NCBI GenBank assembly: GCA_050261175.1
Contig: JBLNDA010000125.1
Span: 10,343-74,342 of the forward strand
DNA: 64,000 bases
Reading direction: 5' to 3'
DNA from: Clostridia bacterium
GTDB lineage: Bacteria; Bacillota; SHA-98; UBA4971
Shown here: piece by piece, positions 22,246-56,861 of the stretch
Numbering within the stretch: position 1 is the stretch's first letter
Layout of the letters: each line of letters starts with the position of its first letter
Position numbers and translations under genes: made by a program
Notes under the pieces: generated by a model
Told to the model about the DNA's origin: nothing
The model's input: only the letters and a program-made list of their open reading frames with translations
Database searches by the model: none

Positions 22246-22944
22246 TCAGCTGCGCGGATCCCACCTGGCCGCCGCGACCCGCTGGCCAGTCTCGCAGCCC
22301 ACGGAGGCATCCACGAAGTCCCGTGCGGCCGACGCAAGCGCCGCCCCTATGATGTCGGCCATTCTCATCACCAGGCATAGCCTTGTGTTTTGGAGGACCA
22401 TGTACTCCATGTACCCTCCCACGTTTACGATGCCGGTGACATGGGCATGCCCGACCTGGGGCAGGTTCTTGCTCACACCGGTGCCCGGCCGGAGGGGCCC
22501 CCTGTTCGCCGTGATCGTCCCCACGTTTTCCAGCCTTCCGAGGCAAGCGTCCACCGCGACGATGTACGGGCTCCTGAACATCGAGTGGGCGCGGTCGATA
22601 GCGACCTGCAAGTTGGCCGCGTGAACGGGGTCATCGAGCGTACCCCACACACGGCAGCTGTCGATGCCCAGGCTGACCAGACGCGTGCCTGTCAGGGGCC
22701 CGAGCGAGTCACCGGTTGATCGGTCCGTGCCGATGCAGAAGAATAGAAGCGGCCTGCGCGCCGGGTCGGACAGGTCCCGGGACATCAGAGACCGAAGCGA
22801 GTTGGCGAGGACCGTTGTCGCGACCGGGTCGTCCACGTGAGCCCGACACACAGTGTCCCGGCTGCTGCCCAAGAACGTCAAAGGAGCGCCCTCCCCTTGC
22901 AGTCGTCCCTCCGAGGTGCAGGAATCCGGAGGAGAGAACGTCAT
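22246..22944 (-). CDS. yyaC: Sporulation protein YyaC (GPR-like peptidase fold)
   Basis: LLFFCIGTDRSTGDSLGPLTGTRLV...AVDACLG...VGTITA...GVSKNLPQVGHAHVTGIVNVGG. The start is uncertain; a TTG near 22872 with a GGGGAGGG RBS is possible. Confidence 0.8.
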   Translation of the reverse strand: MTFSPPDSCTSEGRLQGEGAPLTFLGSSRDTVCRAHVDDPVATTVLANSLRSLMSRDLSDPARRPLLFFCIGTDRSTGDSLGPLTGTRLVSLGIDSCRVWGTLDDPVHAANLQVAIDRAHSMFRSPYIVAVDACLGRLENVGTITANRGPLRPGTGVSKNLPQVGHAHVTGIVNVGGYMEYMVLQNTRLCLVMRMADIIGAALASAARDFVDASVGCETGQRVAAARWDPRS

Positions 22945-23167
22945 TTGCAGTATATGACCGGCGCACCGCCCGTATTCCTGTCCGCTCGTGTCCGCCGGTC
23001 TGGGCTAGTGTCTGGAGAAGGCCTTCGGAGAGGAACAGGGAGCGGTCACCCTCGGTGGCGCCTCAACCGGCGGACGTGCCGGTGAGGCCCACTGTCCCAC
23101 TGGTGATGAGGGAAGGTGCGCTAAGTATGAGGTCACTAGTTCTCTTTGGTCTTGCGAGGTCTTGAGT

Positions 23168-23275
23168 TGCCGGTGACTGCACGAGGGGTGTCGAAATCCG
23201 GCCACCGGGCAGACGGGCCGGATTTTGGCGAAGCGCGCCCCGCTTGGGGCGCCGTCCCCGAGTGCAACACCGGCA
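23168..23275. repeat. Structured inverted-repeat element, copy 1 (108 nt)
   Basis: The termini TGCCGGTG and CACCGGCA pair. Inner helices are TGCAC/GTGCA, GGGG/CCCC flanking tandem G-A pairs, GAAATCCGGCC/GGCCGGATTTT, and GCGCCCC-GCTT-GGGGCGC. The element shares the block TTGGCGAAGCGCGCC with copy 2. Confidence 0.6.
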
Positions 23276-23345
23276 GCCCAGCTCCGCGCGTGCGCTCTCT
23301 GGAATCGGCGACTATCTATGGCGATCTGCTTGGTAGTTGCTGGGC

Positions 23346-23456
23346 TGCCGGTGATTGCACGAGCGGTGCCGAGATCCGGACACCGGCCTGACAGGCCGGC
23401 TCTTGGCGAAGCGCGCCGCGCCGTGCGGGCCCCCGTGCCCAAGTGCGACACCGGCA
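23346..23456. repeat. Structured inverted-repeat element, copy 2 (111 nt)
   Basis: It has the same termini (TGCCGGTG...CACCGGCA) and the helix TGCAC/GTGCG. The helix GAGATCCGG/CCGGCTCTT shows compensatory changes relative to copy 1. The TTGGCGAAGCGCGCC block is identical. Confidence 0.6.
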
Positions 23457-23652
23457 CCCCCAGAGGCCGGGAGCATTCCTTCACCCTCGCTTCCCGGGCA
23501 GCGATACGGCACCGGAGTGCTGCGCCCGCTCTTGACTTGAATAGGAATTACGGTGTGAGCACGTGCGCCAGGAAACATCGAGAGCAGCTCCGGAAAGAGC
23601 GGCACGGCGCCGCGCCCGTCGGGGGCGCGAGCGACGCGAGGGAGGTGGAGCC

Positions 23653-24744
23653 GTGAGACGTGGCGGCGGACGCGGCACGGAGATCAAGCTGGCAGCCACT
23701 TACCTCGGGACGGTGGTGGGCGCCGGTTTCGCCTCCGGCCAGGAGCACCTGCATTTCTTCGCGGCGTTCTCCTCCGGAGGCGACCTCGGCGTCATGCTGG
23801 CTGGCCTCCTCTTCATCATCTTTGGGGTGCTCCTCGCTGACCTTGCGTCAAGGCACGCTACCTCGTCACCAGAGGACCTCCTCGTCTTCGTCGGGGGGAC
23901 GGCGCTCGTGAGAGCGCTGGATTGGCTACTCACAGTGTTTACGTTCTGTTCGCTGTGCATCATGCTCGCAGGAAGCGGCGCGCTCTTCAGGGAGCACGCG
24001 GGCGTTAGTTCTAACCTGGGGACGGCCCTCACGGCCGCGGTGACATTGATGGCCTCCGCCAAGGGGGTGTCGGGCCTGCTCTCCATCAATACACTGTCGG
24101 CTCCGGTACTGCTCGGTGCGCCCGTGGCAGTCGCCGCCGCCTCGCTCATCTTGGCCCGCCGCGGAGTCCTTCCACCATCCCCCGTCCCTAGCCCGCAAAC
24201 GTTTACCGGCAACGTCCTCCTCCCAGCGTGGCCGGTTGCAAGCGTCCTCTATGTTTCATACAACCTCCTGCTCGTCGTCGCTGCCTTCGCCTCCATGGGA
24301 GAGGAGCTCGACGACGCGAGAACCGCCCGACGCGGCGCAGCGCTCGGGGGAGCCGCCCTCTCAGTGTTCCTGGCAGCCATCCACCTCACCCTCGAGCTCC
24401 ACGGAGACGAGGTTTGGCGGACCGAGGTGCCCATGCTGCTCGCCGCTTCCCGCCTCGGAGCGGGCCTCAGGCTTGCGTACTCAGCCGCGCTCTGGGTCGC
24501 CATGGTCACCACCGCCGTCGCGGGGTGCTTCGCCATGTCCCGCAGACTCGAGAAGTGGGTTCGCCTGCCCCAGCGCACGCTCGCCGTCCCCGTGACCCTG
24601 GCAGCCGCCCTACTTGCTCAGGTCGGTTTTGCCAGCCTGGTCGGCCGGATCTACCCCGTGTTCGGCTACCTCGGGCTTCCGCTGGTCCTCGGCCTCGCCG
24701 CGGCGTATGCCAGAGACCGGCTCACCATTACCATTCTGAGATGA
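23653..24744 (+). CDS. YkvI-like polytopic membrane protein (putative transporter)
   Basis: EIKLAATYLGTVVGAGFASGQEHLHFF resembles the B. subtilis YkvI N-terminus, and there are about 10 predicted TM segments. The GTG at 23653 is preceded by GGAGGTGG. The ORF-track start at 23563 adds an Arg-rich artefact. Confidence 0.65.
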   Translation: MRRGGGRGTEIKLAATYLGTVVGAGFASGQEHLHFFAAFSSGGDLGVMLAGLLFIIFGVLLADLASRHATSSPEDLLVFVGGTALVRALDWLLTVFTFCSLCIMLAGSGALFREHAGVSSNLGTALTAAVTLMASAKGVSGLLSINTLSAPVLLGAPVAVAAASLILARRGVLPPSPVPSPQTFTGNVLLPAWPVASVLYVSYNLLLVVAAFASMGEELDDARTARRGAALGGAALSVFLAAIHLTLELHGDEVWRTEVPMLLAASRLGAGLRLAYSAALWVAMVTTAVAGCFAMSRRLEKWVRLPQRTLAVPVTLAAALLAQVGFASLVGRIYPVFGYLGLPLVLGLAAAYARDRLTITILR

Positions 24745-47349: not shown

Positions 47350-47637
47350 AAGACGGAGGGAGATGCTCCGCGACCGCGGGCGACCCCGCTGACACAGCGG
47401 GCGCAGAGGCGGCGCGTGAGAGCCGAAGGAGCAAGACGCACGTTTGCCACGCGCGCGTCCAAACTCTCAGGCAAAAGCACCTTCGCTGACGGCACTCTGG
47501 AGAGGCGCCTCCGTTGCTCCCATATGCGTACGTAACTTGTATGGGACGAGCCGATGTACGCCGGAGGTGCCGCCGACGGGGTAACCTACCCGCCCTGGGC
47601 AGTTGGCGGGGGAATCTCTCAGGCGTCAGGACAGAGA
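47350..47637 (+). promoter_or_regulatory. Tandem glycine riboswitch (two aptamers)
   Basis: Aptamer 1: ...GGAGGGAGA...AGCCGAAGGAGCAA...ACTCTCAGGCAAAAGCAC. Aptamer 2: CTCTGGAGAG...GCCGCCGACGGGGTAA...ATCTCTCAGGCGTCAGGACAGAG. It lies directly upstream of gcvT. Confidence 0.85.
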
Positions 47638-47669
47638 AACGGGCAACGCGTTTGCCCGTTTTGCGTTTT
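47638..47669 (+). terminator. Riboswitch expression-platform terminator
   Basis: AACGGGCAA (47638-47646) pairs with TTGCCCGTT (47652-47660), followed by TTGCGTTTT. Confidence 0.7.
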
Positions 47670-55350: not shown

Positions 55351-56724
55351 ATGGTTTCGAGAACGGCTTCGGGTGAGAGTCGGACATCCGTTGGGAGAGA
55401 CGGTCTGCGCCGTGACGCCCTCGGGATCCTCAACGAGGCCCTCGTCGCGGTCGACCCTTACGAGGCTGTGAAGAGCCACATTCACCGGAAGGGCGACACC
55501 TTGGAAGTGGGCGGGAGATCGTACGACCTCGCACGGATCGAGCGTATCTTCGTGGTGGGCGCCGGGAAGGCAAGCGCGCGAATGGCCCTCGCCGTGGAGG
55601 AGGTCTTGGAGGACCGTGTCACGGCGGGTCTCGTAAACGTCAAGTACGGCCACGCGGAGACTCTGAAGAAGGTCCGCGTCCGGGAAGCGGCACACCCTGT
55701 GCCCGACGCCGCGGGCCTCGAGGGCGCACGCGAGATGCTCGACCTCGCGCGCGAGGCCGGAGTAAACGACCTCGTGATCTGCCTGATCTCAGGTGGTGGC
55801 TCGAGCCTCATGCCGCTTCCCGCCCCAGGCATCGAGCTTTTGGACAAGCAAGGGACGACGCAGGCCTTGCTGAGCTGCGGCGCCACGATTCACGAGATGA
55901 ACGCGGTCAGGAAACACATCTCCCTGGTAAAAGGGGGCGGTTTGGCCCGGGCCGCCGCACCTGCCCAGGTGGTTTCGCTCATCCTTTCCGACGTCATCGG
56001 GGACGATCTCGACGTCATCGCGTCAGGCCCAACCGTGCCGGATACGAGCACGTTCTCCGGGGCCTGGGAGGTCCTCGAGCGCCACGGAGTACTGGATCGC
56101 ATCCCCGGCGCCGTGAGGCGCCGTCTCGAGGCGGGCGCGCGGGGCGAGGTTCCCGAGACGCCGAAGCCGGGAGATCCTCTCTTCAGGAACGTAGCCAACA
56201 TCATCGTTGCGAGCAACGCCATAGCAGTTGACGCCGCGGCGCGGGCTGCGGAAGAGCTGGGGTACCATCCCCTTGTGCTGTCGTCGTGCATACAGGGGGA
56301 AGCAAGGGAGGTCGGGCGCGTGATGGCCGCGATCGCGCGCGAGGTCTCGACGAGCGACCGGCCTGTGGCGAAACCCGCCTGTGTGCTCGCCGGTGGTGAA
56401 ACCACCGTGACGCTCCGGGGGACGGGGCTTGGTGGGCGGAATCAGGAGCTTGCCCTGGCGGCCGCCCTCGATATCGAGGGCCTGCCGGACGTGCTCGTGC
56501 TGGCTGCGGGCACCGACGGGACCGACGGCCCGACTGACGCGGCGGGCGCCATGGCGTTCGGCGACACCGTGACACGGGCGCGTGAGGCGGGGATGTCTCC
56601 CCGCGCCTATCTGGAGAACAATGACTCGTACCGCTTCTTCAAAGCTTTGGGGGACCTCGTTGTAACAGGTCCTACGCGCACCAACGTGATGGATCTTCTG
56701 CTCATCCTGGCTGGACCTAAGTGA
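55351..56724 (+). CDS. Glycerate 2-kinase / hydroxypyruvate reductase family (DUF4147 + MOFRL)
   Basis: ...FVVGAGKASARMALAVEEVL...LISGGGSSLMPLP...LSDVIGDDLDVIASGPT...LAGGETTVTLRGTGLGGRNQELALAAAL...TDGTDGPTDAAGA. Confidence 0.85.
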   Translation: MVSRTASGESRTSVGRDGLRRDALGILNEALVAVDPYEAVKSHIHRKGDTLEVGGRSYDLARIERIFVVGAGKASARMALAVEEVLEDRVTAGLVNVKYGHAETLKKVRVREAAHPVPDAAGLEGAREMLDLAREAGVNDLVICLISGGGSSLMPLPAPGIELLDKQGTTQALLSCGATIHEMNAVRKHISLVKGGGLARAAAPAQVVSLILSDVIGDDLDVIASGPTVPDTSTFSGAWEVLERHGVLDRIPGAVRRRLEAGARGEVPETPKPGDPLFRNVANIIVASNAIAVDAAARAAEELGYHPLVLSSCIQGEAREVGRVMAAIAREVSTSDRPVAKPACVLAGGETTVTLRGTGLGGRNQELALAAALDIEGLPDVLVLAAGTDGTDGPTDAAGAMAFGDTVTRAREAGMSPRAYLENNDSYRFFKALGDLVVTGPTRTNVMDLLLILAGPK

Positions 56725-56754
56725 GGGTGCGCTAGTTCTTGTCCTCTTCCAGCA

Positions 56755-56804
56755 GTTGCTGGGTTGCCGGTGTTGCACTCTTTCTTTGGGTCACCGGCAA
56801 CCCC
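56755..56804. repeat. Mini-copy of the 23.2-kb structured element (termini only)
   Basis: GTTGCTGGGTTGCCGGTGTTGCAC...CACCGGCAACCCC matches the 5' end (AGTTGCTGGGCTGCCGGTGATTGCAC) and the 3' end (CACCGGCACCCCC) of copy 2. It has a 9-bp stem TTGCCGGTG/CACCGGCAA with a 19-nt loop, and lies between convergent genes. Confidence 0.55.
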
Positions 56805-56861
56805 TCCCAAGAGTCAGGAGGATTCTTGCATCCTCACTTAGCTGGGCGCGGCGCGGCGGAA

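Follow-up and report, generated by a model that had tools for sequence, protein, structure and literature searches.

The two roughly 110-nt units at positions 23168–23275 and 23346–23456 of the window (the whole 64,000-nt stretch of DNA analyzed here) very probably make up the centers of two side-by-side copies of a MITE, a non-autonomous DNA transposon. The MITE family is new, and the kind of element that it represents is already well known. The window belongs to a 2.78-Mb draft genome of 133 contigs from an uncultured biogas-reactor bacterium. A full element measures ~199 nt (type A) or ~216 nt (type B), and a short form measures 123–125 nt. Full elements consist of a left arm of ~42–50 nt, a core of 108 nt, and a right arm of ~49–58 nt, and their outer terminal inverted repeat begins AGT(G/A).... 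The element is non-coding: no consistent open reading frame is present in type A, type B, or short-form elements.

Architecture of the element

Element boundaries were defined by aligning copies together with 400 nt of flanking sequence. In these alignments the similarity stops sharply at CTAAGT...ACTTAG, beyond which the DNA is unique. Type A elements (199 nt, at least 13 copies) have the form CTAAGTGGGGGTGCAGAAATGCTTCCGACTATTGGCAGGGGT-[core]-ACCCGGCAACTACTGGCAATGGGGCAAGGACTAACGCACCCTCACTTAG, and their termini, CTAAGTG(G/A)GGGTGC and GCACCC(T/C)CACTTAG, form a 14-nt inverted repeat. Type B elements (~216 nt) have the form CTAAGTATGAGGTCATTAG...-[core]-...GGCGATTACTTATGGCGATCTACTTAG, with termini CTAAGTA... 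and ...TACTTAG. In a third arrangement, type A', to which the second copy in the window belongs, the core is inverted relative to type-A arms. The sequence AGTGAGGGTGC is the end of one arm type of the genus's MITE.

The paired units in the window form a composite at positions 23121–23494, in which a near-complete type-B element is fused to a truncated, decaying A' element; all parts are given here on the forward strand. The composite opens with a left arm of type bL at 23121–23167, which begins C-TA-AGTATGAGGTC, carries the duplicated TA at 23122–23123, and aligns with the left arms of other type-B copies in the genome (C12:30910, C4:973, C57:8414, and C62:6568). The sequence just outside the CTAAGT of this arm is unique, and the same arm is found in congeners and in the sister genus g3. 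Core copy 1 follows at 23168–23275 as an intact 108-nt three-way junction scoring 105.5 bits in nhmmer. The adjoining right arm, of type bR, occupies 23276–23331 and aligns with other bR arms as far as ...GGCGATCTGCTT, the consensus end being GGCGATCTACTTAG. It lacks the final bases of the ACTTAG terminus, and the type-B element is otherwise complete; the second element is joined at this point.

The second element begins with a left-arm remnant, GGTAGTTGCTGGGC, at 23332–23345. The first ~33 nt of this arm are gone, and the remnant matches the inner end of other A' left arms, ...CCAGTAGTTGCCGGGT (C19:1274, C76:4622, L139:1935, L044, and L106). Core copy 2 (23346–23456; nhmmer, 74.8 bits) is diverged and partly decayed, with a 3-nt insertion in hairpin P5. 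The right arm of the A' element, at 23457–23494, is the reverse complement of arm aL and aligns with ACCCCTCCCAAAAGTCGGGAGCATTTCTGCACCCTCACTTAG of other A' copies, and its terminus is degenerate, reading CACCCTCGCTTCC and not CACCCTCACTTAG.

The first-pass annotation drew the unit boundaries too narrowly, as each unit is the core of a longer element. It correctly placed both units between TGCCGGTG and CACCGGCA, and the block TTGGCGAAGCGCGCC common to the two copies and the GCCCAGC...GCTGGGC closure of the linker are present as it described. The linker closure is an outward extension of the closing stem of each core, and it takes the form GGGT/ACCC in the family consensus. The two copies are 81% identical in BLAST (E 1.5e-23), and the units with short flanks have 88% identical columns in a MAFFT alignment.

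The forward strand of copy 1 folds with −76.8 kcal/mol (z −6.8) and the reverse strand with −67.7 kcal/mol. The forward-strand fold is composed of a closing stem, P1 (TGCCGGTG/CACCGGCA), a second helix, P2 (TGCAC/GTGCA), a GA/GA internal loop, a third helix, P3 (GGGG/CCCC), and two hairpins, P4 and P5. Copy 2 retains P1 and P2, its inner hairpins have decayed, and its fold is weak, with z −3.1 on the forward strand and −2.0 on the reverse strand. The earlier proposal that both copies share one architecture therefore holds in full for copy 1 and for the outer helices only in copy 2. The long-hairpin helix drawn for copy 2, GAGATCCGG/CCGGCTCTT, includes one compensated pair along with one T-C mismatch.

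A third member of the family lies elsewhere in the window. The "mini-copy" that had been pointed out at 56755 is a short form of 125 nt, spanning 56717–56841 on the forward strand and bounded by CTAAGTG...CACTTAG. Both arms and the P1 stem are present, and the interior of the core is replaced by ~10 nt.

Copy number, distribution, and genomic context

The 108-nt core is found in 44 copies in this genome by BLAST and in 58 by nhmmer profile, on both strands. Several copies are located at or near contig ends (C13:158, C106:206, C115:39, C37:214, and C12:1–83), which is the appearance of a repeat that breaks assemblies. All eight other species of the genus are positive, with 70–330 first-look candidates per genome and one species with few. 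Outside the genus, the sister genera g2 and g3 of the same family contain core matches of 72–95% identity, with type-B-like arms also present in g3, and a second family, f2, contains full-length cores of ~72% identity. Across the class, 18 of 22 genomes are positive, and the 19 genomes sampled from other families of the phylum gave no match except one marginal. Plasmid and phage collections likewise gave no match to the repeat.

An exact core 21-mer, searched among 185,579 species genomes, is found only in MAGs named "Bacillota bacterium" and in one labeled Betaproteobacteria. The latter, "Betaproteobacteria bacterium MAG135" (JBLNCC01; loci L041, L048, L049, L058, L061, and others), carries many copies of the repeat. 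Its label is probably wrong, and the repeat is otherwise Bacillota-specific. Among the 21-mer-positive MAGs, AS02xzSISU_21 is a biogas-reactor organism with 32% abundance on an Avicel/cellulose-fed reactor (PMC7038595).

Most copies are intergenic. Gene calls from a codon-usage caller trained on this genome (2151 genes, 82% of the sequence) place 50 of the 58 copies between genes, and the remaining eight "genic" copies are at ORF edges. A pooled set, which takes in 8-kb loci from congeners, has 115 placeable copies; 107 of these are intergenic, and 53 further copies lie at sequence edges. The pooled copies occupy 66 tandem, 25 divergent, and 16 convergent spacers, a split roughly proportional to the intergenic length available in each class (186, 61, and 37 kb, respectively). 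Within tandem spacers, the orientation of the core with respect to transcription is evenly divided in this genome (15:15). The pooled ratio of 41:25 in favor of co-orientation is not significant and possibly counts orthologous insertions more than once.

The spacer between yyaC and the membrane-protein gene

The gene to the left of the composite is yyaC, as first annotated (TIGR02841, 196.8 bits; DUF1256). The gene to the right (23653–24744) encodes a multi-pass membrane protein with no Pfam or NCBIfam match at the usual thresholds, which leaves its initial "YkvI-like" label unconfirmed. Congeners share its GTG start at 23653, preceded by GGAGGTGG. The two divergently oriented genes are syntenic in all nine species of the genus, with spacers of 293–708 nt. 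Five of the nine spacers are element-free (G004, G007, G008, G002, and G003), the G006 spacer holds a short chimeric form (aL arm, deleted core, and bR arm), and the G001 and G005 spacers hold a C-type element. The occurrence of element-free or differently occupied orthologous spacers indicates that this spacer is a repeatedly struck landing site rather than the seat of a conserved regulator. In G005 (L207), the C-type element holds another family element within its own core, an instance of nesting within the family.

The blocks of this spacer that are conserved between species, at ~22940–22990 beside yyaC and ~23514–23562 beside the membrane-protein gene, both fall outside the elements. The block at 23514–23562 (...AGTGCTG...TTGACTTGAATAGGAATTACGGTGTGAGC), which precedes the membrane-protein gene, is retained by six or more congeners in a spacer that otherwise varies, and is a candidate promoter, operator, or leader of that gene. 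The block at 22940–22990, by the yyaC start (CATTTGCAGTATATGA...GTATTCCTGTCC), is conserved in all nine species and contains, on the yyaC strand, the sequence CATATACT, which we take to resemble a forespore-type −10 box. A scan of 22900–23700 found no promoter-like or terminator-like sites. The insertions separate the conserved upstream blocks without interrupting them, so any effect on expression of the flanking genes would be incidental, and this locus most probably serves no dedicated regulatory function.

A cmscan search of the whole window at gathering scores gives no Rfam match at the units, and a search of 22900–23750 with E up to 10 gives chance-level matches only (mir-3188, P37, and snoU82P). 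The sole Rfam match in the window is a glycine riboswitch aptamer (RF00504) at 47487–47644, with 45.6 bits. A hammerhead or other small ribozyme at the junction was considered and rejected, as the lengths and sequences of the joiners are unfit and the Rfam models gave no match.

Target site and likely mobilization

Empty sites were found by joining the flanks of congener elements and then searching this genome and other loci. Three clean orthologous pairs of filled and empty sites were recovered (L047:2730–2927 versus C101, L097:7369–7565 versus L121, and L054:6067–6265 versus C125). In all three pairs, C-TA-G at the empty site corresponds to C-TA-[AGT...ACT]-TA-G at the filled one, and complete elements all read C-TA-AGT...ACT-TA-G. 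The element thus duplicates the TA within CTAG. TA duplication is an established hallmark of the IS630/Tc1-mariner superfamily (PMC2170065, PMC2229807). Insertion into CTAG with duplication of the central TA would correspond to the DDE chemistry of this superfamily, which makes it most likely that the copies are cut and pasted in trans by an IS630/Tc1-mariner-type transposase. Duplication of a 2-bp TA is also attributed to some other transposon groups, among them the IS427 group of the IS5 family.

The draft assembly of this genome (G000) contains no match to DDE_3 (PF13358) and no intact IS630-family element. DDE_3 fragments are present in 4 of 18 genomes of the family, all four from congeners, and lack the MITE's ends. 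The assemblies searched are draft MAGs, which are prone to losing multi-copy insertion sequences. TIR-like words that do not adjoin a core proved to be only decayed remnants and tiny palindromes, none of them beside a transposase ORF.

An IS630-family gene (DDE_3) is present in other genomes of the same class, namely G019 (E 5e-33), G020 (E 1e-31), and G021 (E 4e-16), in which the left end of the element and the 5' coding region are conserved as one unit. In G020, which is also a MITE carrier, the IS630-family element is ~1.14 kb long and reads C-TA-AGTTAGTGTCC...GTGCATTAACT-TA-G. The loci of this element are L217:1501–2643 (G020:C12, ~149737–150880), L208/L216 (G019:C21), and L218 (G021:C36). 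The reading frame of the G020 copy appears interrupted, with an open frame of 206 aa.

Beyond the shared CTAAGT, a likeness to MITE arm Y of family f2 is seen at the left end of the IS630-family element, with z 3.1–4.6 and 1–6 of 500 shuffles scoring as well, and only by end-anchored alignment with a shuffle control. Apart from the terminal CTAAGT, the genus's own arms (aL, aR, and bR) share nothing significant with the ends of that element, and BLAST-short comparison of all arm types with the IS630 loci gave nothing significant. As a kind of partner for the genus's MITE, an IS630-type transposase is well supported.

A covarying three-way junction in the core

The core is the one unusual feature of the element. 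The first-pass proposal that the units diverge in sequence with pairing preserved receives strong support at the level of the family, and its suggestion of selection on the pairing is supported at that level. In a set of 58 diverse copies, 91.5% of cells pair, compared with 31–48% when the partners are slid. Both sides change in 25 of 41 pairs, and the observed values were never attained in 500 shuffles. RNAalifold, as an independent check, returns 29 of the pairs, and 21 of these show compensatory changes. The cores of the two families differ at ~28% of positions and keep the same drawing: P1 is unchanged, the GA/GA step and GGGG/CCCC are retained, and P2 differs by two double changes (TGCAC/GTGCA versus TGCGT/ACGCA). 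P4 and P5 are rewritten with their pairing kept, P4 being AAAATCCGGCC/GGCCGGATTTT in one family and TGAAATTTGGC/GCCAAATTTCA in the other.

Among 100 young copies, only the P4 loop and the P4/P5 joiner vary to any extent (17% divergence), with the stems, the GA loop, and the other joiners at 1–4% divergence. The hits in these copies comprise 87 G.T, 63 A.C, and 62 other mismatches, with only 6 compensated pairs. The young copies are losing their pairing one uncompensated substitution at a time, the course that neutral decay would take once an element has inserted, and selection therefore acts on the propagating lineages and not on each inserted copy. The ratio of G.T to A.C is 69:93 in the broad set and 87:63 in the young set. 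These counts favor no consistent strand, so an RNA reading gains neither support nor exclusion from them.

The core may be kept for the help that it gives the element, for instance as a stable hairpin or cruciform joining the two ends or as a recombination-prone palindrome. A service to the host seems less likely.

Modularity and short forms

At least five arm pairs (a, b, c, d, and the X/Y pair of family f2) enclose the same core. Chimeric arm combinations also occur (bL with aR, aL with cR, and aL on both sides), and the core is present in both orientations relative to the arms in family f1 as well as in family f2. Both the inversion and the swapping of arms are most simply explained by recombination or template switching inside P1, a perfect 12-bp palindrome, GGGTTGCCGGTG. 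Short forms of 122–125 nt recur at different loci in congeners, where they keep the arms and P1 around an interior of ~10 nt. Their recurrence indicates that spreading does not strictly require the core interior.

Also observed was another MITE family, unrelated to the first and ~108 nt long, whose inverted repeats read GAGACTGTTGA.... Its copies are located at L044:6862–6969, L066:2143–2250, L085:2002–2109, and L072:6975–7083, with a weak copy in this genome at C76 ~8123. It is repeatedly nested in the outer inverted repeat of the first family, by GCAC, with a 4–6-bp duplication such as CTGCAC, and is also found near the right end of the IS630-family element in G019.

Alternative explanations

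The regulatory function first suggested for the units, that of a tandem riboswitch or dedicated cis-regulatory leader for the membrane-protein gene or yyaC, has next to no probability. The position in a 5' spacer, the tandem arrangement, and the stable fold would all suit such a function. However, dozens of copies in varied contexts and orientations refute it, and the BLASTN count (44 matches, or 58 by profile, on both strands) marks a repeat and goes against a regulator. The 58 copies are in unrelated contexts, with no constant position or orientation 5' of one gene class and no orthologous conservation. Five of nine congeners have an element-free orthologous spacer and others contain different members of the family, the conserved blocks adjoining the genes fall outside the elements, and Rfam has no match. 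It is also very improbable that the element is a REP/BIME-type or IS200/IS605-derived palindrome moved single-stranded by a Y1 (RAYT/TnpA) transposase. Its highly structured palindromic units, its intergenic sites, and a mosaic modular organization reminiscent of BIMEs recall such elements, but it has long terminal inverted repeats and a TA target duplication, whereas Y1 elements make no duplication. In addition, the Y1 transposase (Y1_Tnp, PF01797) is missing here and in 8 of the 9 genus genomes, all of them repeat-positive. The TA duplication, together with the absence of Y1, rules out a REP-type mechanism. The first-pass suggestion of a REP/MITE-like genomic repeat consequently stands for its MITE half, given the copies, terminal inverted repeats, and TA duplication, and falls for its REP half, given the same duplication and the scarcity of Y1.

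Two further readings concern the core and its relation to the arms. The core could be a separate mobile or recombining cassette within several unrelated short MITEs, with the long forms nested, a reading that is compatible with the MITE explanation and that we regard as unlikely. The cassette would be delimited by the core's own inverted repeat, GGGTTGCCGGTG, or by the inner TTGCAC-NN-GGGG. One core shared by at least five different arm pairs, the chimeric arm combinations, and the use of both orientations relative to the arms in both families would all fit nesting, as would the existence of short forms with arms and no core interior and the conservation of the core, but not the arms, across genera. 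Yet no target duplication surrounds the core, and GGGT/ACCC is an inverted and not a direct repeat. The short forms have P1 and part of P2 and look like deletion derivatives, armless cores are rare and resemble truncations, and recombination or template switching in the 12-bp P1 palindrome can explain both the inversion and the arm shuffling. It is quite improbable that the core is instead a functional structured RNA carried by the transposon, for example an mRNA-stabilizing or processing element, a bidirectional attenuator, or a small RNA, in which case copies such as the pair before the membrane-protein gene would modulate neighboring genes. The strong covariation and the conserved unpaired nucleotides (the GA/GA loop and a CGT joiner) in two families at ~72% identity are consistent with an RNA, as are the 9 kcal/mol by which the forward strand of copy 1 folds better than the reverse strand, the GA/GA loop that becomes TC/TC on the opposite strand, and the weak pooled excess of co-oriented copies (41:25). 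Transcripts of Neisseria MITEs are moreover known to affect adjacent mRNAs (PMC2229807). Against an RNA stand the 15:15 orientation in this genome and the lack of significance of the pooled ratio, the absence of consistent strand bias in G.T versus A.C (69:93 and 87:63), the uncompensated decay of individual copies, the lack of any terminator-like or promoter-like site in the region, the lack of an Rfam match, and the presence of the core in both orientations relative to the arms.

Relation to known elements

The MITE described here has several counterparts among known bacterial repeats. RUP of S. pneumoniae is a non-coding element of 107 bp with terminal inverted repeats, TA insertion, and ~100 intergenic copies, and its mobilization in trans by an IS630-family transposase (IS630-Spn1) has been proposed (PMC2229807). 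The present element is likewise small and non-coding, with terminal inverted repeats, TA insertion, and intergenic copies. It differs from RUP in its unrelated sequence and its length, which is twice that of RUP, and its transposase partner is not in the same assembly. Further differences are the conserved three-way junction of its core, the exchangeability of its arms, and its strict CTAG context.

The Correia elements of Neisseria (NEMIS, CREE) carry a terminal TA with target duplication, are present in hundreds of intergenic copies, and give rise to strongly folding transcripts; they fall into two size classes of 107 and 155 bp, which differ by an internal segment of ~50 bp (PMC2229807). 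The long (199–216 nt) and short (~123 nt) forms of the present element parallel these two classes. The sequence and host phylum are unrelated, and the internal module of the present element is a covarying three-way junction that occurs in either orientation. Features particular to Correia elements are an IHF site, promoters, and cleavage by RNase III.

In the IS630/ISY100 group, TA is duplicated at insertion, and ISY100 transposes in vitro (PMC2170065). The present element shares the TA duplication, and the ~1.14-kb DDE_3 element found in the same class has matching C-TA-AGT...ACT-TA-G ends. IS630 itself targets CTAG. Unlike these insertion sequences, the present element encodes nothing, and its arms are not demonstrably derived from the IS630 element of G019, G020, and G021, with the exception of arm Y of family f2. 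BIMEs (mosaic REP elements of E. coli) and pneumococcal BOX elements are likewise assembled from modules whose combination and orientation vary, and in this respect the present element resembles them. However, BIME and BOX elements are not known to duplicate TA, and REPs depend on RAYT transposases, whereas the termini and target duplication of the present element are of the cut-and-paste DDE type.

Implications

For annotation, the units should be masked as repeats and not called riboswitch candidates in this lineage, which consists of uncultured Bacillota from biogas reactors and in which such repeats break assemblies. The conservation of the core far exceeds the apparent need for mobility, as short forms without the interior also spread, and a purely selfish account leaves the core unexplained. 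We see a small chance that the core is a selected nucleic-acid device, kept by the transposon family since before the two families diverged. Such a device may consist of the three-way junction with its tandem G-A/A-G step and conserved joiner nucleotides. It may work at the DNA level, with a cruciform or single-strand structure increasing transposition or bringing about programmed inversion and the exchange of arms, or it may act as an RNA on neighboring transcripts. If this were true, the core would be a new structured module spread by MITEs.

The family is well suited to studying the use of internal structure to a cut-and-paste MITE and the ways in which MITEs recombine. Its long and short forms, its interchangeable arms, and a covarying core that occurs in either orientation, with dozens of copies (58 cores in this genome) to several hundred candidate matches per genome, amount to a natural experiment on both questions.
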